Below, piece after piece: positions 11,528 through 45,226 of a stretch of DNA of 64,000 nt. The notes under the pieces were generated by a model. It made no database searches. It was not told where the DNA came from and saw nothing but the letters and a program-made list of their open reading frames with translations. A program made the translations under genes and the position numbers. Position 1 is the first letter of the stretch; each line of letters starts with the position of its first letter. Location: NCBI GenBank assembly GCA_963778905.1, contig CAVZWH010000017.1, forward strand, positions 76 through 64,075, read 5' to 3'. This DNA comes from Candidatus Staskawiczbacteria bacterium. Lineage in GTDB: Bacteria > Patescibacteriota > Minisyncoccia > Minisyncoccales > Staskawiczbacteraceae.

Positions 11528-11586
11528 CTTAATATAGATAATCAAGGTCGAAAAAATGAATATTAGAATAATTGATTCAAGAAAAT

Positions 11587-11901
11587 ATGGCACAAGATAA
11601 TGATAAAGAATTTCTTGAGTACATTGTCAAGGAATTAGTTGACAATCCTAAAGACGTCAAAGTTGAAAGAAAAGTTGACGAAATGGGAGTATTGCTTTCT
11701 TTGAAAGTAAACCCAGAAGATATGGGCCAAATCATTGGAAGAGAAGGATCAACAGCCAAGGCAATCAGGAACTTAGTCCGAATTGTTGGACTAAAGAACC
11801 ACGCCAGAGTGAACCTCAAAATTGAGGAACCAGAAGGCGGACGTGCTCTGAAAACTGAGAAGAAACCTCTCTCAGACGACATAGAAAATATTTCTTTATA
11901 A
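11587..11901 (+). CDS. KH-domain RNA-binding protein (YlqC/UPF0109 family)
   Basis: LEYIVKELVDNPKDVKV...GQIIGREGSTAKAIRNLV contains a GxxG-type KH motif. It occupies the conserved position upstream of trmD. I chose the ATG at 11587 over the TTG at 11572. Confidence 0.75.
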   Translation: MAQDNDKEFLEYIVKELVDNPKDVKVERKVDEMGVLLSLKVNPEDMGQIIGREGSTAKAIRNLVRIVGLKNHARVNLKIEEPEGGRALKTEKKPLSDDIENISL

Positions 11902-12017
11902 ATAGAAAGTGAAGATCGCGCCGCAAGGCGCGGTTTTCATTTGTGGTATAATGGAATATCCTGCCAAATACTAAAATTTCTCGTGTCGAGAAATTTTATT
12001 TGCCAGGATGCCTATGC

Positions 12018-12686
12018 ATGATAAAGTTTGACGTAGTCACAATTTTTCCGGAAATGTTTGACTCTTATTTGAAAGAGAGTTTGATTTCGCGTGCACAAAA
12101 AAAGAAATTTATAAAAGTTAATTTGCATAATTTAAGAAAGTGGACAAATGATAACCATAAAACAGTTGACGACAGGCCGTTTGGCGGAGGATTGGGAATG
12201 GTTTTGAAAGTTGAACCTATTTACAAAGCAGTAAAACAATTAAAGAAAAATAAAAAAGTAAAAGTAATTTTATTTACGCCGAGAGGACAAAAATTTAACC
12301 AGCAGATAGCTTACAAACTTTCAAAATTAGACCAGATAATTTTTATCTGCGGAAGATACGAAGGAGTTGACGAAAGAGTTGCAGAAAAAATTGCAGATAT
12401 GGAAATTTCAATTGGAGATTACGATTTAATGGGCGGAGAATTGCCAGCGATGGTGGCAATAGAAACAATTTCAAGATTGATTTCCGGAGTTTTGGGAAAA
12501 CCACAACTGCTAAAAGAAAGAATTTCAAAATCCGGCGGATTTTTAGAATATGCGCAGTATACAAGGCCGGAAATTTTTTCGCCCAAAAAAGGAAAAAAAT
12601 GGAAAGTTCCTAAAGTTTTGTTATCGGGAGACCATAAAAAAATTAATGAATGGAAAAAATTGCATGGCAAAGTTATTGAAAAATAA
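12018..12686 (+). CDS. trmD: tRNA (guanine37-N1)-methyltransferase TrmD
   Basis: MIKFDVVTIFPEMF...DDRPFGGGLGMVLKVEP...ICGRYEGVDERV...SIGDYDLMGGELPAM match the family. The likely start is the ATG at 12018. Confidence 0.9.
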   Translation: MIKFDVVTIFPEMFDSYLKESLISRAQKKKFIKVNLHNLRKWTNDNHKTVDDRPFGGGLGMVLKVEPIYKAVKQLKKNKKVKVILFTPRGQKFNQQIAYKLSKLDQIIFICGRYEGVDERVAEKIADMEISIGDYDLMGGELPAMVAIETISRLISGVLGKPQLLKERISKSGGFLEYAQYTRPEIFSPKKGKKWKVPKVLLSGDHKKINEWKKLHGKVIEK

Positions 12687-12756
12687 TCGTTTTTATGATA
12701 TAAAATATATTATGAGTAGGGCGTGCCCCGTTAGAGTCGGGACGCCGACTCTAACG

Positions 12757-12842
12757 GGGCGTGTGGCTGAGCAGCAAAGGCATCAGACTGTAAATCTGAC
12801 GGGTTCTACCCTTCGCAGGTGCAAGTCCTGCCGCGCCCACCA
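12757..12842 (+). tRNA. tRNA-Tyr (GUA), long variable arm, CCA encoded
   Basis: The acceptor is GGGCGTG/CGCGCCC. The anticodon stem is TCAGA/TCTGA with loop CTGTAAA. The T-arm is GCAGG-TGCAAGT-CCTGC, which places G at position 55. Confidence 0.85.
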
Positions 12843-12857
12843 GTGTCAGATAACATT

Positions 12858-12930
12858 GCCGATGTAGCTCAGTTAGCAGAGCACATTCTTGGTAAGAATG
12901 AGGTCCGCAGTGCAAATCTGCGCATCGGCT
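12858..12930 (+). tRNA. tRNA-Thr (GGU)
   Basis: The acceptor is GCCGATG/CATCGGC. The anticodon stem is CATTC/GAATG with loop TTGGTAA. The T-arm is CGCAG-TGCAAAT-CTGCG, which places G at position 55. Confidence 0.85.
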
Positions 12931-12956
12931 CAGAAAAATATAATTAGAAAAAAATT

Positions 12957-13118
12957 ATGGCAACAAAAAAACCATTTACAAAATTAGCTTGTTCTGTCTG
13001 CAAGACAACAAACTATTTTACTAAAAAAACAAAAAAATCAGCTGAAAAAAAACTTGAGCTGAAGAAATTTTGTTCAACCTGCAAAAAACATACCCCTCAT
13101 AAAGAGAGTCGCAAGTGA
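12957..13118 (+). CDS. rpmG: 50S ribosomal protein L33 (53 aa, absent from the ORF track)
   Basis: It translates to MATKKPFTKLACSVCKTTNYFTKKTKKSAEKKLELKKFCSTCKKHTPHKESRK, with the CxxC...CxxC pattern and the K(K/H)T.H.E ending typical of L33. Confidence 0.85.
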   Translation: MATKKPFTKLACSVCKTTNYFTKKTKKSAEKKLELKKFCSTCKKHTPHKESRK

Positions 13119-13248: not shown

Positions 13249-13277
13249 TTGACAATTATTATAAATAGTGGTAAATT
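13249..13277 (+). promoter_or_regulatory. Candidate promoter (TTGACA, 17-nt spacer, TGgTAAATT extended -10) for the radical-SAM operon
   Basis: TTGACA lies at 13249-13254 and TAAATT at 13272-13277, preceded by TG. An AAGGAG RBS lies at 13315-13320, before the GTG at 13327. Confidence 0.4.
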
Positions 13278-13326
13278 ATAGGCAGTTATTTGACCCGTCC
13301 TTTGACAACAAATTAAGGAGATAAAC

Positions 13327-14409
13327 GTGGAAACCTCAAGAATTAAGAAAATTGGCTGGGGGTTGGGCGTGTGCAACATGAATTGCAGACATTGCTACAA
13401 TCGTTCCGGGGATGAAAATTCTGTGCCGAGATATACACTCGGTCAGCTCATTGATGTTGCAGACAAAATATGTCCACACATTAGGGACATTAACTTTGGT
13501 AGCGGTGAATTTGTATGCAACCCAAACGCAATTGAGTTGGCGCATTACATTACCGATAAGTATCCGCATATTGATTTGGCGGTGACTTCAAGCGGTTACA
13601 CTATTGTAAAGATGGATCCTATCGACATCAAGCGAAGACTAAGCGATGTCGATGTGTCTATCGATTTTCCAGACGCCGAACGGCACAATGCGTTCCGCCG
13701 ACACCCGCAGGCATGGGAATGGGCTATACGAGCACTGGAAATTCTGAATGAAGTCAGAAAGCAGAGAACTGTAACTATGTGTGTTACCAGCCAAGTATCA
13801 AATGATGATCTTGTCGGTATGCTGAAATTGGCAGACCGCTACGGGGCATGTCTAAGACTGAATTGGTACCGCCATACTGGCAGAGGTCCGAAATCTTTGC
13901 GCTTGTCTGCGAGACGCGCATGGGAAATAGTCGAATTTTTGTCAGACAAAGCGGTGTTCAGTTGTCTAGATTCTGTTTTTGCAGGTCCTTTAGGCGTGAG
14001 GTCAAAGCCTTGCCCCGGAGCGCGATTTTCAGCGCGAATTCATCAGGACATGAGCGTTACCGCATATCCATTTCTGCAAGGAGATGAATGGTCGGCGGGA
14101 AACATTCTTGATCCTGAAATTGATCTGGCTAAAATTTACAACTCTTCGGCTTTCAAAAAGTTGAGGAGCAGAAAAGTCCCGTACTGCGAAGGATGTAAAT
14201 TTAGTGCATCTTGTGCGGGCGGATGCATTACACGCGCAATACTGCACAACGGAGGAATCGCTAAAGTTGATGACTATTGCCCTATTCGTTACAAGCAAAT
14301 GGCAACAGTTGAAAAGGTTCAGCAAAAAATCGTTGTGCATAAGCACGGCAACTTGGTGCACGAAGGTTATTTGTGCACTACCATCATGAAACCACATTCC
14401 GGCATTTAG
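13327..14409 (+). CDS. Radical SAM protein with a C-terminal SPASM/twitch-like Cys cluster
   Basis: It has the CX3CX2C motif GVCNMNCRHCYN, followed by GSGEF. The C-terminal Cys cluster is YCEGCKFSASCAGGCITRA...DDYCP. It has a GTG start and elevated GC. Confidence 0.8.
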   Translation: METSRIKKIGWGLGVCNMNCRHCYNRSGDENSVPRYTLGQLIDVADKICPHIRDINFGSGEFVCNPNAIELAHYITDKYPHIDLAVTSSGYTIVKMDPIDIKRRLSDVDVSIDFPDAERHNAFRRHPQAWEWAIRALEILNEVRKQRTVTMCVTSQVSNDDLVGMLKLADRYGACLRLNWYRHTGRGPKSLRLSARRAWEIVEFLSDKAVFSCLDSVFAGPLGVRSKPCPGARFSARIHQDMSVTAYPFLQGDEWSAGNILDPEIDLAKIYNSSAFKKLRSRKVPYCEGCKFSASCAGGCITRAILHNGGIAKVDDYCPIRYKQMATVEKVQQKIVVHKHGNLVHEGYLCTTIMKPHSGI

Positions 14410-14428
14410 CCGAGAAAGGAGGCCTTGA

Positions 14429-15067
14429 ATGAAAGCATTTCACATCAGCTTTGAGGGCACTAATGGTGCCGGCAAGTCAACGCAAGCAAAGATACTTGTA
14501 AAGCATCTTTGCGACTACGGCGTCCCCACAAAGTATGTCAAAAATCCGAATGGAACAGCGTTCAGCAAGTTGGTTATGGATGCGATTCTTGCTCAATCGC
14601 CACACAAATTGGCAGAAATTCTTGCCTTTGCGGCTTGCTTTTGCCAAACGGCCAATGAATTGGTTGTGCCTTTTATGAAAAGAGGCACCTGTGTTGTGTC
14701 TGACCGGGGCATAGGCTCAGCCTATGCCCACGCTTTATACCGATGCAAAGGAGCTATTAACGAGGATTTGTTCACTCAGATAATAACGGAAATAAACAAA
14801 GATAATGTTTTATTTCCCGATTTGACCTTTCTGCTCTCACTTCCCATCGAATTGGGAGTTGCAAGAAAGAAAGGGTCTGCGAGCAAAAACAGATTAGATG
14901 CTCTTACGCCAGATAGCGCCCGGGAAGCTCTTGCTTATGAAAAATTGAGCAAGAAATTTCCAAATTGGATAACCATAAGCGCCAATGGTAGCATCGACAA
15001 AATCTCCAAAAGGATTTGGACAGAAACAGCTAAACTTATAAGGAGGTGCGCAAATGAACAGCACTAA
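14429..15067 (+). CDS. Thymidylate kinase-like P-loop nucleotide kinase
   Basis: It has the P-loop ISFEGTNGAGKSTQAKIL, the DR motif VVSDRGIGSAYAH and a LID-like segment RKKGSASKNRLD. At 212 aa its length is typical of Tmk. Confidence 0.75.
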   Translation: MKAFHISFEGTNGAGKSTQAKILVKHLCDYGVPTKYVKNPNGTAFSKLVMDAILAQSPHKLAEILAFAACFCQTANELVVPFMKRGTCVVSDRGIGSAYAHALYRCKGAINEDLFTQIITEINKDNVLFPDLTFLLSLPIELGVARKKGSASKNRLDALTPDSAREALAYEKLSKKFPNWITISANGSIDKISKRIWTETAKLIRRCANEQH

Positions 15068-16613
15068 GATAGTGTTGGCAACTCCGCCGACAATTTCTCA
15101 GCGCACAGCTGAAGAAACGCTTGCCATTGAATATCTGGCATCTGCGTTGCGTAATGCCGGATATGAAGTCGTAATAATCGATGCATGGCTCAGAGGCATT
15201 GACTGCCAAAAAGCCGTGGACCTGATGTTTGAAGACGGCAATCCTTCTGTAATTTGCATGTCTTGCTACCGCTCCAACCTCGATCAGGCGAGTGAATTGA
15301 TAAGACGCGCAAAAGACAGGGCAGAAAATGTCCTGACCGTGTGCGGAGGGTTCGGGCCGACATTTCATGATGAAGAATTTTTGGAAGTTGGTTTCGACGT
15401 TGCTGTTCGCGGAGAAGCCGAGGGGCTTCTTGCGGATCTGATTGCCAAAATGTTGGCCAAGAATAGTCTTTTTGACTTTCCTAGCGTCAGTTTTCTGTCG
15501 GGCGGCAAAATATTTCGGACGGAAAGAAAAGAACCAATCATTGAATTGGAAACTATTTTTTTTCCGGCTAGAGACGAGATGCCGTATGTAATCAGGAGAA
15601 AAAATCCTGTTCACATTTGCACGTCGCGAGGTTGCAACGGCAGTTGTTCTTTTTGTTCTGTAGCCGCTTTTAATCATGGTGTGACTAGAAAGCGCTGGCG
15701 TGGCAGATCTATCGGAAACATAGTCGATGAAATCAGGGAAATTCACGAAAGGTTTGGGACAACCCATTTCAAGTTTGTCGACGATAGCTTTCTTGAACCG
15801 CCAAGAGACGAAAATTGGGCAATCGATTTCGCAAGTGCCCTTAAGGGGGCGGGGCTCAATATTCGTTTCAGAACGCAGGTTCGCGCTGACCGTCTCACAG
15901 ATTCCATTGTGGAAAGTCTGGCAAGTTGTGGCTTGTTTGCCACTAACGTAGGTGTAGAGAATTTTTCCAACTCTGCCCTGTCCCGAATGCGAAAACCATC
16001 GCGTTCAACTGACAATATCAGGGCAATGGGTCTTCTGCGCAAATATAATGTGTACACACAAATCGGCTTGATCATGTTTGATAATATGACAACCATTGAT
16101 GAGTTGTCGGAAAATTATCAGGCGTTACTCAGGTATCCCTGGGTGATTATTAAGGGAGTGTTCACTGAAATGTTTGCGGCAGAGGGAACTGCTTTTACAC
16201 AAGGTTTGAAAGGTACTCATTTGCTGAGTGGTGGCGGCAAAAACCAGAACTATGGCTATGCGATACAAGATGCGCAGGCGCGCAGAGTGTATTCAATGCT
16301 GAAGGTCTGGCACAAGTATCACGCTCCGCTGTATGACCAGGTGATTGATCCTTTGACCGCTCCAAAGATTATGTCTGATGGCGGATACGAGGAAGTTCAC
16401 CGGTTGTGCGCAAACCTTCTTGCGCTTGACGTGAGATTCTTTGGAAAAACTCTTTCGCAGATTGCAAAGGGTGTATCTGATGATGCAGAAATGACGGAAG
16501 CTGAAATCCGTCTGACTGCAGGCGCCCACGAAAGCATAAGAGAAAAAATAAATAATGTCTACGCCAGAGAAGGCTTGACTTACGATGGTGAGTTCAATCC
16601 TTTTCTTGCATAA
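15054..16613 (+). CDS. B12-binding-domain radical SAM protein (class B-like)
   Basis: The N-terminal Rossmann-like region (IVLATPP...LAIEYLASALRNAGYEVVIIDAW) resembles cobalamin-binding domains. The radical-SAM motif is CTSRGCNGSCSFCSV. It overlaps the kinase gene by 14 nt. Confidence 0.8.
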   Translation: MNSTKIVLATPPTISQRTAEETLAIEYLASALRNAGYEVVIIDAWLRGIDCQKAVDLMFEDGNPSVICMSCYRSNLDQASELIRRAKDRAENVLTVCGGFGPTFHDEEFLEVGFDVAVRGEAEGLLADLIAKMLAKNSLFDFPSVSFLSGGKIFRTERKEPIIELETIFFPARDEMPYVIRRKNPVHICTSRGCNGSCSFCSVAAFNHGVTRKRWRGRSIGNIVDEIREIHERFGTTHFKFVDDSFLEPPRDENWAIDFASALKGAGLNIRFRTQVRADRLTDSIVESLASCGLFATNVGVENFSNSALSRMRKPSRSTDNIRAMGLLRKYNVYTQIGLIMFDNMTTIDELSENYQALLRYPWVIIKGVFTEMFAAEGTAFTQGLKGTHLLSGGGKNQNYGYAIQDAQARRVYSMLKVWHKYHAPLYDQVIDPLTAPKIMSDGGYEEVHRLCANLLALDVRFFGKTLSQIAKGVSDDAEMTEAEIRLTAGAHESIREKINNVYAREGLTYDGEFNPFLA

Positions 16614-16616
16614 GAC

Positions 16617-16646
16617 AAGCGAGCTATGGATAGCTCGCTTTTTTTA
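16617..16646 (+). terminator. Rho-independent terminator
   Basis: A 10-bp stem AAGCGAGCTA/TAGCTCGCTT with loop TGGA is followed by a T-run. Confidence 0.8.
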
Positions 16647-16709
16647 ATATAAAAATTTGCTTTAACTCGCGTAATATCATATTATAAAAAAATAGCTTAT
16701 AATAAATTT

Positions 16710-17066
16710 ATGAATGACAATTTAAAAAATTATGCAACTGCATTTGTGGGTAAGATTGTAAAAATAAAAATTGACAGACCACTTGGTTCAAAGCATCCAA
16801 AACACGACATGATTTATGAAGTAAATTATGGTTTTGTGCCGGATACAAAAGCTCCAGATGGGGAAGAGATAGATGCTTATTTATTGGGAGTTGATAAACC
16901 TCTAGATGAATTTACCGGAAAATGCATAGCTGTAATACACAGATTAGACGATAATGATGATAAACTAATAATTATTCCTGAAAACTCTGAAAACATAAGC
17001 GATGAAGAAATACTTGGATTGATCAACTTCCAAGAAAAATGGTTTAAGTCAGAAATAATTAGGTAA
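16710..17066 (+). CDS. Short inorganic pyrophosphatase-like protein
   Basis: KIDRPLGSKHPKH...VNYGFVPDTKAPDGEEIDAYLLG...VIHRLDDNDDKLII resembles the YGF(I/V)P...DG(D/E)..D core of family I PPases. At 118 aa it is shorter than canonical enzymes. Confidence 0.55.
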   Translation: MNDNLKNYATAFVGKIVKIKIDRPLGSKHPKHDMIYEVNYGFVPDTKAPDGEEIDAYLLGVDKPLDEFTGKCIAVIHRLDDNDDKLIIIPENSENISDEEILGLINFQEKWFKSEIIR

Positions 17067-17145
17067 AAAATATATAAGGATTTTTTTCAAACAAAAGAAA
17101 CCTTTGTGGCAATTCTCATAAAGGTTTTTTGTTAAAAAGTTCAAA

Positions 17146-17174
17146 TTGACATATCAGATTAAATACAGTATAGT
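17146..17174 (+). promoter_or_regulatory. Sigma70-type promoter (TTGACA, 17-nt spacer, TATAGT)
   Basis: TTGACA lies at 17146-17151 and TATAGT at 17169-17174, with the RBS AGGAGA upstream of the ATG at 17248. Confidence 0.5.
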
Positions 17175-17247
17175 GAGTATCGGTATTGTAACTTGACAAC
17201 TCGTACAAACGTTTGAAAGATTTGAACAATCTTCAGGAGATATAACC

Positions 17248-18546
17248 ATGGAAAACGAGTGTTACCTGGGGATAGATTTTGGAACATCGAATTCGTCGGT
17301 CGCGTTGTTGCCTAAAGGAGAATCAAGTACGTTCCCCGTCGGGGAGGCGACTGTTTTGCCTTTAGGAAAAAACGGATCAATGATAATCCCGTCATTTCTT
17401 TTTTTTCCCCAAGAAGGAGGAAAATATTATCTCGGGGATGAGGCGATTGAGCATTATCTGAGTGATAACGCGCAAGGGCGCTTTATGCAGTCAATCAAAA
17501 CATTACTTCCCGATACTACTTTTGCCAGTACCACTATCAGTGGATGGGGACGCTACACGACCGAAGATTTGGTTTTTTGCATTCTGTCAGCAATCAAGCA
17601 CCGACTTGAGTTGATCGTCGATCAGAATGTTGCCGGAGTCGTGTTGGGTCGGCCGGCTATTTTTTCCGAAAATGATGATGAAGAAAAAATAGCGGAACAA
17701 CGCTTGCTGAAAGCGGCAAAGCGAGTCGGTTTCGAACGCGTCCGTTTTCAGCGCGAACCTATCGCCGCGGCTTTAACCTACAAACACTCACTTAGTAAAC
17801 CGGAATTGGTGTTTGTGGGAGACTTTGGTGGTGGTACCAGCGATTTTACGGCTATGCGCTTATCGCCCCATAGTGTCGGTAACATCGATTCTGATGATGA
17901 TATTCTGGCCGTCAACGGCATATCAATCGCCGGCGATACCTTTAACAGCGCGATTATGCGACATCAACTACTCAAGTATTTTGGCTACGATGCTCATTAC
18001 AAGGTCCATGGCGAAACAAAATGGCTGGATGTTCCGACGGCAATTCACTATGAACTTTGTGAATGGCACAAAATTTCTTTTCTAAAGGGTGGCCGATACC
18101 TTGCTCTAATTGGAAAGATGATTCATCAATCCGATGACAAGCAGGGGTTTATGAGACTGCAGGCGTTGGTTGAAGAAAATCTCGGGTATCCGCTGTTTCA
18201 GAGTATTCAGGAAGCAAAGTGTATCCTATCATCTGATCAAACCTCACGGGTTAAGTTCAATCGCTCGATTATCAACATCGATGAAGAAATCACCCGAAAG
18301 AGCTTTGAAGAGATGATAGAAGAGTACATCGAAAAACTTGGGTTGTGTATCGATAGGACGTTATCGACAGCCGATATTAATGCCAGAGACGTGGATGCAG
18401 TATTCCTGACAGGCGGAACTTCACAGACGCCGAGAGTCCGTCGATTAATGGCAGAAAAATTCGGCGAAGAAAAACTTCGATCAGGAGATGCTTTCACTAG
18501 CGTTGCTGAAGGACTTGCCCTTAGCGCTCCCTATCTGTTCAAATAA
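17248..18546 (+). CDS. Hsp70/actin-fold ATPase lacking a substrate-binding domain (YegD-like)
   Basis: It has the phosphate-1 motif LGIDFGTSNSSVA and the phosphate-2 motif VGDFGGGTSDFT, plus VFLTGGTSQTPRVR. At 432 aa it comprises the nucleotide-binding domain only. Its GC is clearly higher than the flanks. Confidence 0.8.
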   Translation: MENECYLGIDFGTSNSSVALLPKGESSTFPVGEATVLPLGKNGSMIIPSFLFFPQEGGKYYLGDEAIEHYLSDNAQGRFMQSIKTLLPDTTFASTTISGWGRYTTEDLVFCILSAIKHRLELIVDQNVAGVVLGRPAIFSENDDEEKIAEQRLLKAAKRVGFERVRFQREPIAAALTYKHSLSKPELVFVGDFGGGTSDFTAMRLSPHSVGNIDSDDDILAVNGISIAGDTFNSAIMRHQLLKYFGYDAHYKVHGETKWLDVPTAIHYELCEWHKISFLKGGRYLALIGKMIHQSDDKQGFMRLQALVEENLGYPLFQSIQEAKCILSSDQTSRVKFNRSIINIDEEITRKSFEEMIEEYIEKLGLCIDRTLSTADINARDVDAVFLTGGTSQTPRVRRLMAEKFGEEKLRSGDAFTSVAEGLALSAPYLFK

Positions 18547-18560
18547 TAAAACGTTCTTCC

Positions 18561-18596
18561 ATCCCCACATCGATCAATAGATGTGGGGATTTTTTA
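18561..18596 (+). terminator. Rho-independent terminator
   Basis: An 11-bp perfect stem ATCCCCACATC/GATGTGGGGAT is followed by a T5 run. Confidence 0.85.
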
Positions 18597-18660: not shown

Positions 18661-19221
18661 ATGAATATTGAAGTAGAAATAAAAATTGAAATAAATAATT
18701 TTGAAGAGGTTAAAGCGAAAGTGGCAGTTATTGGGAAGCTGGTAAAATCGATAAAACAAGTTGATGATTATTTTATTCCCAGCCATAGGGATTTTTTTGC
18801 GCAAAAGCCTTGCCCGACAGAATGGCTACGCATAAGGACTAATCCCGATAAAGTAATTTTTGAATATGATAAGGCTGTAAATATGACAGCGAACGGTGAT
18901 TATGACTATGCGGAGGAATATGAAACAGTAATTTCTGACGCCGATGAACTCAGAAAGATATTGAATTTTTTAGATTTCAAAAAAGTGGTAACGATTGATA
19001 AGCAAAGGGAATATTGGGACTGTGGAGAGATAGAGGTTGCACTAGATAAAATTGAAGGATTGGGTACTTTTATTGAAGCAGAGGCGAAAGGAAATTTTAA
19101 AGATGCTACGCAAGCCAAGCAGGCCTGCCTTAAATTTCTGGAAGAATTAGGAATTGAAAACGCTGAAGACAGAGAAATTAAAAAAGGTTACCCAGTTTTA
19201 TTTTTAGAAAAAAATAATTAA
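18661..19221 (+). CDS. CYTH-domain protein (class IV adenylate cyclase / triphosphate tunnel metalloenzyme family)
   Basis: It has the N-terminal ExExK motif (NIEVEIKIEI), EWLRIRT and EVALDKIEGLGTFIEAE. Confidence 0.75.
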   Translation: MNIEVEIKIEINNFEEVKAKVAVIGKLVKSIKQVDDYFIPSHRDFFAQKPCPTEWLRIRTNPDKVIFEYDKAVNMTANGDYDYAEEYETVISDADELRKILNFLDFKKVVTIDKQREYWDCGEIEVALDKIEGLGTFIEAEAKGNFKDATQAKQACLKFLEELGIENAEDREIKKGYPVLFLEKNN

Positions 19222-19233
19222 ACCAATATATTT

Positions 19234-19497
19234 ATGGCAGTAATCAAAAAGAAAGTATGGCCGGAATATTTTGAACTTATTTCATCCGGCAAAAAGAAAT
19301 TTGAATTGAGATTAGCAGATTTTGACGTGAAAGAAGGGGACGCCTTATTGTTGGAAGAATGGGATCCAAAAACAAAAGAATATACTGGCAGAAGTATAGA
19401 GAAAAAAGTAAGCTTTGTTTTGAAATTCAATCTCAATGATTTTGGTCAGGAAGAGATAATCAAAGAAAAGGGTTTAGTCGTAATCCAGATTGATTAG
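19234..19497 (+). CDS. DUF3850 / ASCH-like small protein
   Basis: KVWPEYFELISSGKKKFELRLADFDVKEGDALLLEEWDPKTKEYTGRS matches the DUF3850 pattern as I recall it. Confidence 0.6.
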   Translation: MAVIKKKVWPEYFELISSGKKKFELRLADFDVKEGDALLLEEWDPKTKEYTGRSIEKKVSFVLKFNLNDFGQEEIIKEKGLVVIQID

Positions 19498-40287: not shown

Positions 40288-41982
40288 CTACAAAAATTCT
40301 TTAATTTGTGCTAACATTACGTCAGGATAAGGCACTTCCTTGGCCCAGTCAAAAGTTCTAAAGTCGTCTAAAAGTGCCTGCCATCTGCTACAAATAGAGG
40401 CTAAAGCCTCTGTTTTGTTCTCAAAATCGCCCTTTTTTCTTGGTTCTAACCCTAAATATTCCGCCTGCAGGGCTGGGTAGTCTTTTTCTATCAATTCGAA
40501 CCATTCATAAGGCTCAATATCCAGCTTTTTGTTCCTGATTTCGCGCTTTTCACCCAGTCCTACTAGTATCTCTTTTTTCAGTTCTAACCCTCCGTTTAAG
40601 AACTTGGATCTGGCGTAAGTTGCGAAGCTAAAAGTCCTTTCCTCCAGCTTAATGTACTTTTCGGATTTGGCACCAGGTTCTTTCAATTTGCTCTTTAGCT
40701 GGACGATTTTAGCTTCCAATTCTTTTTTCTCTTGCAGGAAAGCATCGTCGTTAATCATTAATTTGTACCTCATCCTTGTAAGCTCTTTTAATTCATTCTC
40801 AGTCTGCTCAAGAGTTTTTTTCTGCATATCGCAAATTTTGTCTTTATTTTCAATATCGGTTTCTTTCCTTTGCTCGATTCTTTCCAAAGCCCAGTGCAGG
40901 AATTCCGGGATTATTGTATATTTTTCCAGCTCCTTTTCGATCTGCAGTTCAAGGTCTCCGTCGCTCATCACTTTTTTCTGCGTGCATTTTATTTTTGTAG
41001 TCCTGCGGGTGCAGTGGTAGTATGTGTATTCCTTTATCTTGCCGGTTTTTTTGATGATTTTTTGTTTTATTTCAGCGGTATAAAGGCAGCCGCATTCCTG
41101 GCATCTGAGGAGTCCGGTAAAAGCAAAGGCCCGCTTGGTTCTTCTCGGCTTGCCGCCCTTTCCCAGTATAAACTGAACCCGGCCAAATTCTTCGAGGGTG
41201 ATCATCGGCTTGTGTTTTCCTTGATACTGCCTTCCCAAATGTTCAATAATCCCAGCGTAAAATACATTTGTAAAAATTCTGTATAGGGAGCTTTCTCCAA
41301 GCGGGTTGCCGCCCATGCGTTTAGTCTTTCTTGTTGTGAAGCCCCACTCGTTATTGGCTTTTTCTAATATTTGGGGCACGGTGTAATTTCCCGTGAGCAT
41401 CAGATCCCACATTTTTCTTATAAGCTTGAACCGCTCCGGGTCTATTGCGATATCATTATCGCCCCTGTCCTTGAACTTGCTGTTCAAGTATCCCTGCGGG
41501 GCGGAGCCCGGACGCCAGCCTTTTTGCAGTTTGCTGTCGATGCCTCTTTTTACATTTTTTCTCAAATCCAGAATATATTGGTTAGCCATTCCGCTTTCAA
41601 CATTGATGAGCAAAACATTGTCGTCCGGCAGATATTCTCTGTCTATGGTTTGAATTGCTGAAAGCACCCCTCTTTGCAAAAGCCAGCTTATCTTTCCGCT
41701 GTCGATCGGATTGCGGGACAGTCGGTTTATCTGCCAGCATAAGATTCCATTGGCTTCGCCGTTCTCAATCTTTTTTAGCATCTCATCGAATAGGGGACGG
41801 TTGTTTGGCTTCTTGGCTGACTTTGCCTCCATGTAAATCTTTACAATATTTAATCTCAAATCAGTGGCTAATTCTTTTAGCCTGTTTACCTGGTCATCGA
41901 TTGACTGGATTTGCCTGTCGTCGCCCTCCGAAGATTTGCGGGCGTAAAGGATATATTTAATTTTCTCTTTTTCTCTAATCAT
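40288..41982 (-). CDS. Large serine recombinase (564 aa)
   Basis: It has YILYARKSSEGDDRQIQSIDDQ and INRLSRN. The zinc ribbon is CQECGCLYTAE...YYHC, and a long coiled coil follows. Confidence 0.85.
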   Translation of the reverse strand: MIREKEKIKYILYARKSSEGDDRQIQSIDDQVNRLKELATDLRLNIVKIYMEAKSAKKPNNRPLFDEMLKKIENGEANGILCWQINRLSRNPIDSGKISWLLQRGVLSAIQTIDREYLPDDNVLLINVESGMANQYILDLRKNVKRGIDSKLQKGWRPGSAPQGYLNSKFKDRGDNDIAIDPERFKLIRKMWDLMLTGNYTVPQILEKANNEWGFTTRKTKRMGGNPLGESSLYRIFTNVFYAGIIEHLGRQYQGKHKPMITLEEFGRVQFILGKGGKPRRTKRAFAFTGLLRCQECGCLYTAEIKQKIIKKTGKIKEYTYYHCTRRTTKIKCTQKKVMSDGDLELQIEKELEKYTIIPEFLHWALERIEQRKETDIENKDKICDMQKKTLEQTENELKELTRMRYKLMINDDAFLQEKKELEAKIVQLKSKLKEPGAKSEKYIKLEERTFSFATYARSKFLNGGLELKKEILVGLGEKREIRNKKLDIEPYEWFELIEKDYPALQAEYLGLEPRKKGDFENKTEALASICSRWQALLDDFRTFDWAKEVPYPDVMLAQIKEFL

Positions 41983-42129
41983 GTTTTTTCTAAAGAGGCT
42001 CGGGCTGACTAATCTCCCGAACTTTTCTCAACGGTTGATTAGCCCTCCGCTTTATATATTTTTCCTCTTTTAACAGAGGAATGCCGCGTCCAATAGATAA
42101 GTCAAGCAGAAACCGCTGTTTTGTCTTAA

Positions 42130-42615
42130 TTAATTGGAATCTTTGATTATTTCCTCCTTCTCTCCTTCTCTTGCAATATTAAAATCTCTGTATTTTTGAG
42201 ACTTCGGTTTTTGAAACTCTGGCGGGGAGGGCTTGGGCGGCTCAGGCGGATCTGCTGGCTGAGTTAAAGCCAGGAAAATCCCCACTATTTCTGCTATAAT
42301 TATCATTGCCATTATTAATAAAGGCGTAGGAATTTCTATTTTTTCTCCTTTTATTTCAGATTTTTGAGACTTTTCAGCTATTGGGGCTGGTTTTTGAGCG
42401 AGTATCCTTTCTTTTTCTCTTAATTTTTCCTTTTTTTCTATTTTCCGATAATAATTATTCCTGGCATTTTCCTTAATCTTTTCCCTATTTTTTATATAAT
42501 AGGCGTGAACAGCCTCCTTTCTTTTGACTCTTTTTTCAGACGCCTTGCTGATTTCATTCAGACTTTTTCCAATAATCTCTGGAATACTCATATCTTTTTT
42601 AATATTCTCGCTCAT
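42130..42615 (-). CDS. Hypothetical protein with a central TM helix and Lys/Glu-rich N-terminus
   Basis: It is 161 aa and contains the hydrophobic stretch LLIMAMIIIAEIVGIFLAL. Confidence 0.4.
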   Translation of the reverse strand: MSENIKKDMSIPEIIGKSLNEISKASEKRVKRKEAVHAYYIKNREKIKENARNNYYRKIEKKEKLREKERILAQKPAPIAEKSQKSEIKGEKIEIPTPLLIMAMIIIAEIVGIFLALTQPADPPEPPKPSPPEFQKPKSQKYRDFNIAREGEKEEIIKDSN

Positions 42616-43376
42616 AGCTTTATATGTTTTAAATTAGTTAATTTTTCCCATCTCAATACCGTCTTTTCCACATAGCCCGCATCCAGCTCGATCCCTCTGC
42701 ATTTTCTTTTGACTTGCTCGCAAGCTACCAGTGTGCTGCCGCTCCCCAAAAACGGATCGTATACTACCTCGTTTATCTTTGTGCTGTTGAGTATTAATTT
42801 TCTCAAAAGTCCCGGCGGTTTCATGGTTGGGTGCAGTTTACTTTTTTGGGGTTTTGGATAAAAGAGCACGGACTTGGATTTGCTCCGTTCAAACTTGTGA
42901 CTTCCAAACCAGCCATAAGCTATAATTTCGTGCTGCGGATTGTAATCTTTTCTGCCCAACACGATATGGTTCTTTAGCCAGATAATCATTTGGCTGTAAT
43001 ATCCGCCGGTATTTTCTATTCCTTGCCGCAACGCGCAGAGCATCAAGTCGCAGTTGAAAATGTAAAATGCATTTTTTACGTCCAGATATGGTTTTGTTGT
43101 TTCCAGCCACTCTTTTGTAAAATCCGAATACTGCTCGGCTGTTTGTTTCTGGTCGCCTTGTATTTTTTCAAATCCGGCGAAGTGTTCTGATTGAACGCCA
43201 CGCATTCCCAGCCAGTCCTTATTTTCCACGTAAGCTATGCCGTATGGCGGATCCGTTAAAATCAGCCGTACCTTTTCTTGGCAGATTAATTTTTTAATCA
43301 GTTCCTTATCCTTGCAGTCTCCGCAAGCTATCCTATGATCCCCTAATTTAAATATTTGCCCTTGTTTTACTTGCAT
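42612..43376 (-). CDS. Phage-type N4/N6 DNA methyltransferase (DPPY)
   Basis: It has KLGDHRIACGD, ILTDPPYGIAY and DPFLGSGSTLVACE. The probable start is MQVKQG at 43376. The ORF track extends it to 43406. Confidence 0.85.
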   Translation of the reverse strand: MQVKQGQIFKLGDHRIACGDCKDKELIKKLICQEKVRLILTDPPYGIAYVENKDWLGMRGVQSEHFAGFEKIQGDQKQTAEQYSDFTKEWLETTKPYLDVKNAFYIFNCDLMLCALRQGIENTGGYYSQMIIWLKNHIVLGRKDYNPQHEIIAYGWFGSHKFERSKSKSVLFYPKPQKSKLHPTMKPPGLLRKLILNSTKINEVVYDPFLGSGSTLVACEQVKRKCRGIELDAGYVEKTVLRWEKLTNLKHIKL

Positions 43377-43462
43377 ATCTTTGTTGTGGCAGAAGAACCC
43401 TATCAAGCTCCGCCCAGCCTTAAATGATTTGCTGGGGGCTCGTGTGGTTGCTTGAAATTGCT

Positions 43463-44746
43463 CTAAACCGCCAGCTTTACTGTCTTTTTTCCCGTATACT
43501 GCTCAAACCTCTTTATGATGACTTCGCAAAATATCGGATCAATTTCGCATAAGTACGCTTTCCTTTTCGATTGCTCAGCCGAGATTAACGTGCTTCCCGA
43601 TCCGCCGAATAAATCCAAGATAATATCTCCGGGCTTGGTGCATCTTTTTATCGGCCTTTCGTGCAGAGTTATTGGTTTTTGGGTTGGGTGCTGATATTCT
43701 GAAGTGTTGTCTCTTCTTTCCAGCCAAATGTTTATTATTCCCAAAATATCATCCAATCCTTGGTTTCCGGATTCTATTTCTTTGTTTAGTATCTCATTAA
43801 AATTTTTGAAGTTTTTATTTAAATATGGCCTTCCCACAGTTCCGTAAACACAGGACTCATACACTTTGTTAAACGCCTTTTGCGGGGTAACGTTGAAATT
43901 GTTTTTAATCCAAAGGCAAACTCTATCCGGCCGAATTTTATTTTCTTGATACAGCTGCTGTAAAAGCCAGATAGAATTCTCATCGCACCAGTAAAAGACG
44001 TGAGCGTCTGTTTTTGCCGCAACCAAAGCATTTTTAATGGTGGCGTCCAAAAATGTTTTGTACTCTCCGGCATTTTTCTTGTCGTTGACTCCTTTGTATT
44101 TTAAGTCCGGGAAGTCCTTGCGGTATTTTGTTGAAGTTCCAATACCTGTGCTGTAATTTAATCCAATGTTATATGGCGGGTCGCAGTAAATCATGTCGGC
44201 TTTTTTCCCTTGCATAAGTTTTAAAACATTTTTTTCTTTAGTGCTGTCGCCGCATAGGAGACGATGATTCCCGAGTTGGTATAGATCACCCTCTTTAGTA
44301 GCAGGCTTCTTTATTTCCCTCACCGCTTTTTCAACATCAAAGTTATCCTCGTCTAATTCCAGCACATCGTCCCACATAGAATTTAAATCATCATTGTCAA
44401 AACCAGCCTCAAGCAATTCTTCGACTTCGAATTCTTTCAACAACTCCGCATCCCAGCCGCCGCGTTCAGTTAGCTTGTTATCGAGTAGCATATATCTTTC
44501 CTTTTGTTTTTCAGTAAGCCCTCTTTTTACAACAACTTCCGCCGAAGTATATCCGGCTCTTTTCATCGCCCCCAGCCTGCCCTCGCCGACAAGAAGCATA
44601 TTTTTTTCGTCAACAATCATGGGCGAGGTATACTCGAATTCTTTCATACTTTGGTATAGCAGTTCGTCATCATGTTTTTTGGGATTTTTAGGATTCGGTT
44701 TTATTTCGCTTAATTTTAATATTTTGGTTTCAATTTTCGCCAGCAT
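43463..44746 (-). CDS. ParB-like nuclease domain fused to an N4/N6 DNA methyltransferase
   Basis: The N-terminus (KLSEIKPNPKNPKKH...LVGEGRLGA) is ParB/Srx-like. It also has QLGNHRLLCGD, IYCDPPYNIGLNY and DLFGGSGSTLISAE. Confidence 0.85.
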   Translation of the reverse strand: MLAKIETKILKLSEIKPNPKNPKKHDDELLYQSMKEFEYTSPMIVDEKNMLLVGEGRLGAMKRAGYTSAEVVVKRGLTEKQKERYMLLDNKLTERGGWDAELLKEFEVEELLEAGFDNDDLNSMWDDVLELDEDNFDVEKAVREIKKPATKEGDLYQLGNHRLLCGDSTKEKNVLKLMQGKKADMIYCDPPYNIGLNYSTGIGTSTKYRKDFPDLKYKGVNDKKNAGEYKTFLDATIKNALVAAKTDAHVFYWCDENSIWLLQQLYQENKIRPDRVCLWIKNNFNVTPQKAFNKVYESCVYGTVGRPYLNKNFKNFNEILNKEIESGNQGLDDILGIINIWLERRDNTSEYQHPTQKPITLHERPIKRCTKPGDIILDLFGGSGSTLISAEQSKRKAYLCEIDPIFCEVIIKRFEQYTGKKTVKLAV

Positions 44747-44785
44747 ATTTTTTTGTTTTAATTATTTATTTTTATTTTTTAATTT

Positions 44786-45226
44786 TTATATTTTTATCAG
44801 AAATTTTGCTGCCTCCTGGCTTATCTCATTTAAACTGCCTGCCTCGCTGGGCAAATTCTTTTTTTCTATTGCCTGGTTTAAAATTTTCATTAGAGCCGAT
44901 TGCTCTTCTTCATCCAGCTTGGTTATTTTATCTACCAGCTCTTTATTCGGGCTGACATAACGGCCGTCAGTAAAGCCGATAGTCAAATCATTGCCGTCGA
45001 TTTTATCGAAAATTAATTTTATCATTGCAACGTCTCCATTTATTGCCAGAGCCACAAGATTCTTGATAAGCCGCTGAGCTTTAGTTTCACTGCCTTTTAT
45101 TTCCTTCTGCAGTTCGTTTAAAAGAATAGGGGATAGATACTTATATCCCTTTTTCATGCCTGAATTTGCGGGCTTAGCCTGCCCGGGCTTAAATCTTGTG
45201 GATGGATTTGGATTATGATTTGTCAT
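44786..45226 (-). CDS. Phage-type small protein (DUF5681-like)
   Basis: It has RFKPGQAKPANSGMKKG, and its architecture is similar to 39013..39333. Confidence 0.4.
   Translation of the reverse strand: MTNHNPNPSTRFKPGQAKPANSGMKKGYKYLSPILLNELQKEIKGSETKAQRLIKNLVALAINGDVAMIKLIFDKIDGNDLTIGFTDGRYVSPNKELVDKITKLDEEEQSALMKILNQAIEKKNLPSEAGSLNEISQEAAKFLIKI

Follow-up and report, generated by a model that had tools for sequence, protein, structure and literature searches.

An OxsB-like cobalamin radical-SAM enzyme and a SPASM radical-SAM partner in a candidate nucleotide-tailoring cassette from Candidatus Staskawiczbacteria

Pathways of the OxsB type that lead to oxetane nucleosides have been described for two compounds only, oxetanocin and albucidin, both of which are bioactive nucleoside analogues (PMC7074753). 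In the oxetanocin pathway, OxsB is found with the HD phosphohydrolase OxsA, and the substrates of OxsB are given there, with reference to Bridwell-Rabb 2017, as phosphorylated deoxyadenosines (PMC7074753). Albucidin formation needs two radical S-adenosylmethionine (SAM) genes alone, one of them encoding an OxsB homologue, and no OxsA. Its cluster in Streptomyces albus subsp. chlorinus has the order albA-albB-albC, where AlbA is biotin-synthase-like and albC encodes a ribonucleotide reductase, and a thymidylate-kinase gene is located five genes upstream (PMC7074753). Here we describe a gene cassette in a 64,000-nt stretch of Candidatus Staskawiczbacteria DNA (contig CAVZWH010000017.1; the whole stretch is hereafter called the window), where genes for a SPASM radical-SAM enzyme, a Tmk-like kinase, and a B12-binding radical-SAM enzyme follow one another. 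Judging from sequence comparisons and structure models, we put the probability at roughly one half that the cassette is a nucleotide-tailoring pathway whose invariant core consists of an OxsB-like cobalamin radical-SAM enzyme and a SPASM radical-SAM enzyme, and that the locus in the window is a horizontally acquired copy of it.

The three genes are located as follows.

13327-14409, + strand: SPASM radical-SAM gene (open reading frame (ORF) of 360 aa, GTG start)
14429-15067, + strand: Tmk-like kinase gene (ORF of 212 aa)
15054-16613, + strand: B12 radical-SAM gene (ORF of 519 aa)

A preliminary description of this DNA had reported these ORFs together with their motifs, a 19-nt gap between the SPASM and kinase genes, a 14-nt overlap between the kinase and B12 genes, an AAGGAG/GTG start, and a terminator with a 10-bp stem, all of which were confirmed. 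Likewise, searches with Pfam and NCBIfam profiles agreed with its domain calls (Radical_SAM, SPASM, Thymidylate_kin, and B12-binding). This overlap may couple the translation of the kinase and B12 genes. The three-gene combination had not been recognized as a described system, and this still holds: none of the SPASM, kinase, and B12 proteins reached a curated equivalog in NCBIfam, and no paper describing the cassette's gene combination was found.

The connection with OxsB comes from the B12 enzyme. Pfam searches identified a B12-binding domain (PF02310; 75 bits with a cut-off of 32, 5e-21) and a Radical_SAM domain (PF04055; 62.5 bits, 7e-17) in this protein. The motif CNGSCSFCSV is present, and the CX3CX2C cysteines (C194, C198, and C201) were invariant in 62 homologues. 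The protein falls within the definition of class B (cobalamin-dependent) radical-SAM enzymes, in which a Rossmann-type domain that binds B12 precedes the CX3CX2C core. When its AlphaFold2 (AF2) model (predicted local distance difference test (pLDDT) score 93.3) was searched with Foldseek, the best match was OxsB, with an E value of 2e-26 and a query template-modelling score (TMq) of 0.74-0.77 over about 615 columns. The match took in the cobalamin Rossmann domain, the radical-SAM barrel, and the C-terminal helical bundle. The enzymes that represented methylases in this fold comparison (TsrM, MgmA, CysS, and TokK), as well as the dehydratase AprD4, gave TMq values of 0.58-0.63. OxsB was also the top phmmer match of the B12 enzyme among solved structures (6.5e-12). 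The comparison with OxsB that the preliminary description had drawn is thus supported by both sequence and fold.

The SPASM enzyme was characterized in the same way. Its Radical_SAM domain was recognized by Pfam at 5.8e-15, and the motif CNMNCRHCYN and the C-terminal CEGCKFSASCAGGC were confirmed in the translation. The radical-SAM CX3CX2C lies at C16, C20, and C23. The SPASM domain profile (TIGR04085) scored 29.8 bits with a cut-off of 27, and the cysteine pattern of SPASM proteins (CX2CX5CX3C plus flanking cysteines, for auxiliary 4Fe-4S clusters) was found in full; C229, C287, C290, C296, C300, C318, and C350 were invariant in 47 homologues. The AF2 model (pLDDT 92.9) was closest in Foldseek to the anaerobic sulfatase-maturating enzyme anSMEcpe (anSME; TM 0.66-0.69), with CteB, BlsE (10th), and SuiB following. 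Viperins (TM 0.52-0.54) and MoaA (0.54 or less) ranked below these, and the corresponding equivalogs scored far under their cut-offs (NF038283 for viperin, 30.4 bits with a cut-off of 180; TIGR02666 for MoaA, 29.8 bits with a cut-off of 284). The kinship with viperin or MoaA that had been considered previously therefore did not hold in the structure comparison, in which the enzyme was anSME-like. Identity to the mainstream SPASM partners described below is only 25-32%, yet of the 47 columns highly conserved in these the window's enzyme has 35, among them the family-specific VH..YL.T tail at the C-terminus. On account of these columns and of the same NCBIfam ranking, it is regarded as a divergent member of the partner family.

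Homologues of the B12 enzyme were collected in a scan of one genome per species, which yielded 123 matching stretches. They were found in Patescibacteria and one Woesearchaeota (DPANN) metagenome-assembled genome (MAG); in the actinomycetes Nocardia, Streptomyces, Kutzneria, Lentzea, and Streptoalloteichus; in gut members of the Clostridia, Bacilli, Erysipelotrichaceae, and Mollicutes; in the Alphaproteobacteria Enterousia, Bradyrhizobium, and Hoeflea; and in Magnetococcales and Muribaculaceae. Full-length homologues were also carried by two plasmids, one from Streptomyces clavuligerus and the other a conjugative plasmid of Enterococcus. Conserved neighbours were counted by de novo clustering of the neighbouring ORFs at 80 loci. 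A SPASM radical-SAM gene adjoined the B12 gene in about 74 of these, in at least six major lineages and also on the two plasmids. A truncated, pyrophosphatase-like (PPase-like) gene was a neighbour in 51 of 80, the Tmk-like kinase in 40 of 80 (from the candidate phyla radiation (CPR), Clostridia, and Alphaproteobacteria), and an Hsp70-like ATPase in 19 of 80, from several phyla. Because the kinase accompanies the B12 gene so much less often than the SPASM gene does, the conserved core is taken to be the two radical-SAM enzymes; of the three-gene unit proposed originally, the radical-SAM pair stands and the kinase does not.

The locus in the Woesearchaeota MAG (L011, contig DUFX01000080.1) is a complete locus of the CPR type, with Hsp70-like, B12, SPASM, PPase, and Tmk-like genes. 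Its B12 enzyme is 47% identical to that of the window, and either inter-domain transfer or a binning error could account for it. A protein of 719 aa (P0073, L172 206-2365) was considered as a Rosetta-stone fusion of the two radical-SAM enzymes. In it, a B12 radical-SAM enzyme missing its last ~50 residues runs into a SPASM enzyme of which only the C-terminal half, without the core, is present. Since it was seen on one contig only and probably reflects a deletion or an assembly join, it was not accepted as a fusion.

The genes that accompany the core differ from lineage to lineage, and cassette arrangements were lineage-specific. In Clostridia, the accessory genes encode a Gmk-like kinase and another P-loop protein, along with a SAM methyltransferase and a CobC-like histidine phosphatase. 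Bacilli and actinomycetes have MTAP-like phosphorylase, NDT-like, and HprK-like proteins, Alphaproteobacteria have a NUDIX and an adenosine-deaminase-like protein, and CPR bacteria have a 5'-deoxyadenosine-deaminase-like amidohydrolase. Accordingly, the types recruited include Tmk-like and Gmk-like kinases, NUDIX and CobC-like phosphatases, NDT-, ThyA-, and ThiD-like enzymes, and APH-type kinases. The independent recruitment of such nucleotide and phosphate genes in different lineages is among the reasons why we favor a nucleotide-tailoring function for the cassette.

The most elaborate version, that of the actinomycetes, is a ten-gene operon which adds APH-type kinase, ThyA-like, ThiD-like, DAO, and TenA genes. 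It lies at L004 8001-17623, and was also seen at L013-L015, L026, L052, L073, and L076. ThyA-, NDT-, and ThiD-like enzymes, DAO, and TenA are enzyme types of the pyrimidine chemistry of bacimethrin and mildiomycin, and by analogy there are hints that the product in this lineage may be thiamin-antimetabolite-like. Pyrimidine-type genes were found beside the radical-SAM pair in actinomycetes only. On the Enterococcus sp. M190262 plasmid (L168 9950-17317), a MOBP/MPF_T conjugative plasmid from a human isolate, the order is B12 radical-SAM, SPASM radical-SAM, inorganic diphosphatase, a 961-aa adenylation protein resembling nonribosomal peptide synthetases (NRPS), and a major facilitator superfamily (MFS) transporter; two DNA methyltransferases adjoin this cassette. 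Since MFS transporters adjoin the radical-SAM pair on this plasmid and in L086, export of the product in some lineages is suggested.

The kinase was examined for its relationship to housekeeping thymidylate kinases. It matched the Pfam family Thymidylate_kin at 7.5e-24 and contains the motifs FEGTNGAGKST and SDRG, so that both the P-loop and the DR motif are conserved; its score for dTMP kinase (TIGR00041, 82.0 bits) fell just under the cut-off of 83.25. However, the REPGGT clamp of dTMP kinases is KNPNGT in this protein, and the arginine that contacts thymine (R78 in E. coli) is a phenylalanine. The kinase belongs to a tight clade (at least 44% identity), beyond which identity drops sharply to at most 37% with ordinary dTMP kinases, and members of this clade were found on contigs carrying radical-SAM genes only. 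In a neighbour-joining (NJ) tree built without bootstrap, all cassette-linked kinases fell outside the canonical Tmk clade. Together with the missing dTMP-contact residues, the phylogeny speaks against a housekeeping Tmk. As for the modified (deoxy)pyrimidine nucleotide proposed as product in the preliminary description, the nucleotide part is in keeping with the nucleotide-type accessory genes, but with phenylalanine in place of the thymine-contact arginine, there is no indication of a pyrimidine substrate. No second Tmk-like gene was seen within the window. In the 76%-identical relative L169 (4793-5356), a second Tmk-family gene lies 1 kb upstream of the trio; it was considered as proof of a housekeeping paralogue, but this gene is likewise divergent and non-canonical. 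A further radical-SAM/SPASM gene with a DUF169 neighbour is located ~6 kb downstream of the same trio (L169 15643-16740).

Apart from the three genes, the locus contains the following features.

13249-13277, + strand: sigma-70-like promoter of the three-gene operon (TTGACA, 17-nt spacer, TAAATT, upstream TG; 10/12 matches)
13302-18595, + strand: five-gene block common with the related locus L006 (blastn, 78% identity, one high-scoring segment pair)
13315-13320, + strand: AAGGAG ribosome-binding site, 6 nt before the GTG at 13327; kept in L006
16617-16640, + strand: intrinsic terminator of the three-gene operon (10-bp stem and T-run; identical in L006)
16710-17066, + strand: mini-pyrophosphatase (PPase-like) gene (118 aa, truncated family I, Pfam 36 bits)
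17146-17174, + strand: promoter-like site 5' of the Hsp70-like gene (TTGACA, 17 nt, TATAGT; 11/12 matches)
17248-18546, + strand: Hsp70-family gene (nucleotide-binding domain only, YegD-like)
18561-18590, + strand: intrinsic terminator closing the five-gene block (stem with compensatory substitutions relative to L006)

The genome closest to the window, L006, is a Candidatus Staskawiczbacteria MAG; blastn against it gave a single 5.3-kb alignment, and nothing outside 13302-18595 aligned. Alignment of the edges revealed that similarity starts at about 13300, at the TTGACAAC...AAGGAG leader, and stops after the terminator at 18561-18590. The flanks of the block are different genes in the two genomes, rpmG and CYTH in the window and thrS and AdoMet_dc in L006. 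The imported unit, previously taken for a self-contained set of three genes, is thus a block of five that includes the PPase-like and Hsp70-like genes. A TTGACA/extended -10 promoter is indeed present, as had been noted, but because it lies outside the block common with L006, it is local sequence and was not imported with the operon. Promoter-like sites as a class were near chance in this AT-rich window (19 found vs 12.8 ± 3.3 expected). The interval between the B12 and PPase genes (16614-16709) was 92% identical to L006; because this exceeds the identity of the block (78%) and the coding average, a conserved regulatory region is suggested there. Besides the terminator, the interval includes a stretch that resembles a promoter, TTGCTT...TATCAT. 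A riboswitch, as a clue to the ligand, was not found upstream in the window or in 13 loci.

The trio is also syntenic elsewhere: the same SPASM-Tmk-B12 gene order was found in L001/L006, L169, L170, and L171. The last three loci (76-56% identity) keep the trio and the PPase gene without the Hsp70 gene, and their flanks differ again from one another, so that the same order is present on at least five contigs with different flanks. In the window and four relatives, these flanks are housekeeping genes (rpmG, thrS, greA, rpsP, and khpA). Repeats resembling att sites and insertion sequence (IS) elements were not found at the block edges. In L171 (2462-11412), the trio and PPase gene are located between rpsP and khpA, with trmD further along; in the window, khpA-trmD-tRNA-tRNA-rpmG (11572-13118) precedes the cassette. 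It therefore recurs near the rpsP-trmD operon in both, at different insertion points.

Base composition was consistent with acquisition of the block. GC content in 300-nt windows was 0.40-0.49 inside the three-gene operon vs 0.30-0.37 on the flanks, and GC at third codon positions (GC3) was 0.45-0.46 for the three genes vs a window median of 0.33 (sd 0.066). A difference of ~1.8 sd in GC3 makes the shift real but moderate; the foreign composition claimed initially is thus present, in GC as well as GC3, at a modest size. The Hsp70-like gene was raised like the operon (GC3 0.45), and the PPase-like gene was low (0.24). In most lineages the cassette genes have host-like GC3, which implies that they are long-term residents there; the window block still stands out. 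Raised GC3, the block common with L006, and the unrelated flanks together point to horizontal acquisition, which is included in the estimate of about one half given above.

Two further regions of the window were noted. Directly downstream of the block, and outside the region common with L006, are genes for a protein with a CYTH domain and for a small ASCH/DUF3850 protein (18661-19497). Clostridial cluster c6 was tried as a CYTH tie to the window's CYTH gene (18661-19221), and no similarity was detected by hmmsearch or hhalign; the tie of this gene to the cassette was rejected also because the gene is outside the common block. On the minus strand, positions 40288-45226 form a second GC3-rich block (0.44-0.50), which has the appearance of a mobile element integrated separately or of a prophage remnant. 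Its genes are those of a large serine recombinase, a DUF5681 protein, and two DNA methyltransferases of the N6/N4 type.

The PPase-like protein was compared with family I pyrophosphatases, whose full catalytic set is E20, K29, E31, R43, Y55, D65, D67, D70, D97, D102, K104, Y141, and K142. It was recognized by PF00719 (36 bits, cut-off 23.5) and scored only 26 bits with the NCBIfam equivalogs (cut-off 200). The protein retains Y51, Y55, D65, D70, D102, and K104 and has E for D67, whereas E20, Y141, K142, and ~90 residues of the family are absent. Mini-PPases from radical-SAM loci are well conserved (44-73% identity). Proteins of this kind form a family of their own (loci L087-L166), represented in at least 395 metagenome stretches by proteins 56-75% identical, without E20, Y141, and K142, and mostly independent of the radical-SAM pair.

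Gene content, synteny, fold relationships, and residue changes were observed directly; from them we infer a substrate class, an order of steps, and a role for the cassette. The Tmk-fold kinase would first phosphorylate a nucleoside monophosphate other than dTMP. On the phosphorylated nucleotide, probably at the sugar, the B12 enzyme would then carry out a radical rearrangement or C-methylation, like OxsB. The SPASM enzyme would perform a second radical step, which by analogy with anSME, BtrN, and BlsE may be a dehydrogenation or decarboxylation. Finally, a phosphohydrolase (the mini-PPase in the window, a NUDIX or CobC-like phosphatase elsewhere) would trim phosphates or pull the reaction forward. 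The two cluster-rich enzymes may depend for Fe-S loading or folding on help from the Hsp70 ATPase-domain protein. A modified nucleotide or nucleoside would result, which might serve as an antimetabolite, an antiviral, or a signal.

Several observations weigh against a nucleotide-tailoring function. The B12 enzyme and OxsB are only ~18% identical; the former has 519 aa vs 744, aligns from OxsB residue 175, and does not contain the N-terminal domain I. An HD-domain protein comparable to OxsA was not found among the cassette neighbours of any lineage. The kinase is absent from half of the loci, and the best structural and profile matches of the SPASM enzyme are mostly modifiers of peptides or proteins (anSME, CteB, SuiB, and MftC). 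The mini-PPase is not specific to the cassette: among metagenome loci anchored on this gene and flanked by 3.5 kb or more in either direction (n = 23), only one carries the radical-SAM pair, and the protein was for this reason discarded as a dedicated third core component. The MTAP-like, 5'-deoxyadenosine-deaminase-like, adenosine-deaminase-like, and APH/MtnK-like proteins may just clear 5'-deoxyadenosine and S-adenosylhomocysteine (SAH). Because they may act on by-products only, little weight is given to the adenine-nucleoside enzymes as indicators of the substrate. Moreover, cobalamin synthesis is not known from CPR bacteria.

A bolder form of the proposal is that the OxsB-like and SPASM enzymes constitute a new cross-phylum family rearranging nucleotide sugars, which would make a ring-altered nucleoside analogue (of the oxetane type or other) in ultra-small CPR bacteria, a DPANN archaeon, Firmicutes of the human gut, and actinomycetes, and amount to a portable, kinase-fed antimetabolite or antiviral pathway borne on conjugative plasmids. 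We offer this form tentatively and consider it doubtful.

It is unlikely that the cassette is a dedicated anti-phage defence, one that upon infection would make a chain-terminating or polymerase-poisoning nucleotide analogue, as viperins paired with kinases do. The idea was put forward in the preliminary description. In its favor are matches of the B12 enzyme and the kinase to the PADLOC profiles PDC-M51A and PDC-M51B, respectively, and of the kinase also to VakA. It is further encouraged by the OxsB-like fold of the B12 enzyme, as oxetanocin, the product of OxsB, is antiviral, and by the mobility of the cassette, one copy of which is on a conjugative plasmid beside DNA methyltransferases. However, the PADLOC matches cover partial profiles and are weak in every lineage, not exceeding 78 bits (28-78 bits for PDC-M51A and 24-59 bits for PDC-M51B in five lineages). 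The flanks in the window and four relatives are not defence islands, and a sensor or regulator component is not conserved. The recurrent UvrD-like helicase neighbour, tried as a Gabija-type defence helicase, was HelD (479 bits vs a cut-off of 419) and not GajB. The MFS exporters of some versions suggest a secreted product. The family occurs in no sequenced phage, and no full-length homologue was detected in GenBank phages; the sole IMG/VR match (L086) was rejected as a case of phage carriage, given that it has no Pfam-recognizable phage genes and contains a transposase. Literature searches for OxsB in an anti-phage role, or for CMP-hydroxymethylase with radical-SAM enzymes, found nothing relevant.

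Also improbable is a small-molecule or cofactor pathway unrelated to nucleotides, with the B12 enzyme as a C-methylase of a lipid, a tetrapyrrole, a thiamin-pyrimidine-like compound, or another metabolite, and with the kinases, phosphatases, and nucleosidases as by-product salvage or as unrelated genes. Most characterized B12 radical-SAM enzymes are methylases, and the top NCBIfam matches of the B12 enzyme are BchE and HpnR; yet these scores (114 bits with a cut-off of 481, and 84 bits with a cut-off of 650) are far under the cut-offs, and the fold is clearly nearer to OxsB than to the methylases. A SAM methyltransferase beside the pair in Clostridia and L086, the thiamin-type ThiD-like, TenA, and DAO genes of the actinomycete operon, and the NRPS-like adenylation enzyme of the Enterococcus cassette would fit such a pathway, and by-product handling would account equally well for salvage-type enzymes of 5'-deoxyadenosine and methylthioadenosine (MTA). 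Against it stand the 40 loci with Tmk-like kinases whose catalytic motifs are intact, and a kinase gene that overlaps the B12 gene in the window.

We judge it quite unlikely that the SPASM and B12 enzymes modify a ribosomal substrate, possibly the neighbouring mini-PPase, in the manner of enzyme maturation or of pathways for ribosomally synthesized and post-translationally modified peptides (RiPPs). RiPP clusters commonly contain pairs of B12 radical-SAM and SPASM enzymes. The structures nearest to the SPASM model are anSME, CteB, SuiB, and SkfB, the best NCBIfam matches of the enzyme are mycofactocin and GeoRSP maturases, and HprK-related kinase B-like genes, known from Haft-type peptide cassettes, are part of the Bacilli and actinomycete versions. 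On the other hand, the peptide-maturase equivalogs all scored far under their cut-offs (at most 88 bits vs 265-850). No short ORF was conserved beyond near-identical genomes, in line with the argument made in the preliminary description that the want of a precursor peptide speaks against a RiPP maturase. A RiPP recognition element (RRE) domain is missing, and since the radical-SAM motif starts at residue 16, the SPASM enzyme has no room for one; a PqqD-like gene was not found among the cassette neighbours. The unusual conservation of the mini-PPase fits this reading, but the protein retains the catalytic residues that bind metal and is in most cases found away from the radical-SAM pair. The accessory genes encode nucleotide enzymes, not proteases or peptide transporters. 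Finally, that a housekeeping tmk came by chance to lie between two unrelated radical-SAM genes is highly improbable: notwithstanding the TIGR00041 score just short of its cut-off and the lack of a second tmk in the window, the gene order recurs on at least five contigs with different flanks, the kinase clade is restricted to contigs bearing radical-SAM genes, and the kinase overlaps the B12 gene, has its dTMP-contact residues replaced, and falls outside the canonical Tmk clade.

The closest OxsB relatives described here constitute a conserved two-enzyme module in ~120 species-level genomes; genome-reduced episymbionts and human-gut bacteria are among the carriers, as is a conjugative plasmid of Enterococcus. 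Should the product be a nucleotide analogue, the module would represent new radical chemistry on nucleotides and rare specialized metabolism in CPR bacteria, and its 2-5 genes would be a tractable set for heterologous expression and for antiviral or antimetabolite discovery. Two families deserve study of their own: the 118-aa mini-pyrophosphatases, which are widespread, and the kinases of Tmk fold in which the base pocket is remodelled.

Compared with known systems, the cassette shares features with several and coincides with none of them. PDC-M51 of PADLOC has the same two types of domain, a B12-radical-SAM-like component A and a Tmk-like component B, both of which are matched by window proteins; unlike the cassette, it has no SPASM component in PADLOC, and membership was rejected because scores were weak in all lineages. 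No literature on PDC-M51 was found. The pVip/Vak viperins likewise combine a radical-SAM enzyme with a nucleoside monophosphate kinase, and weak PADLOC matches were obtained (32 bits for pVip, at most 37 bits for VakA), but the SPASM enzyme of the cassette has an auxiliary-cluster domain that viperins lack, and a B12 enzyme is also present. With anSME, BtrN, and BlsE, the last of which acts on a cytosine nucleoside, the SPASM enzyme shares the full SPASM cysteine set and the lack of an RRE; it differs from them in having 16-18% identity, in lying in no sulfatase or aminoglycoside context, and in being always paired with an OxsB-like B12 enzyme. Albucidin AlbA/AlbB, which were compared by their published description, resemble the cassette as a minimal set of two radical-SAM enzymes, one of them an OxsB homologue, without OxsA and with a Tmk gene nearby; AlbA, however, is biotin-synthase-like, whereas the partner in the cassette is a SPASM enzyme. 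The oxetanocin pathway, carried by a Bacillus megaterium plasmid, supplies in OxsB the best solved relative of the B12 enzyme, and in both cases the genes are plasmid-borne or spread by horizontal transfer and lie beside a phosphate-removing enzyme. In place of OxsA, the cassette has a truncated family I pyrophosphatase, a NUDIX protein, or a histidine phosphatase, and it includes in addition a Tmk-like kinase and, as an obligatory partner, the SPASM radical-SAM enzyme. What is new relative to oxetanocin and albucidin is therefore the obligatory SPASM partner, a B12 enzyme without the N-terminal domain of OxsB, a different phosphohydrolase, and a spread across phyla.

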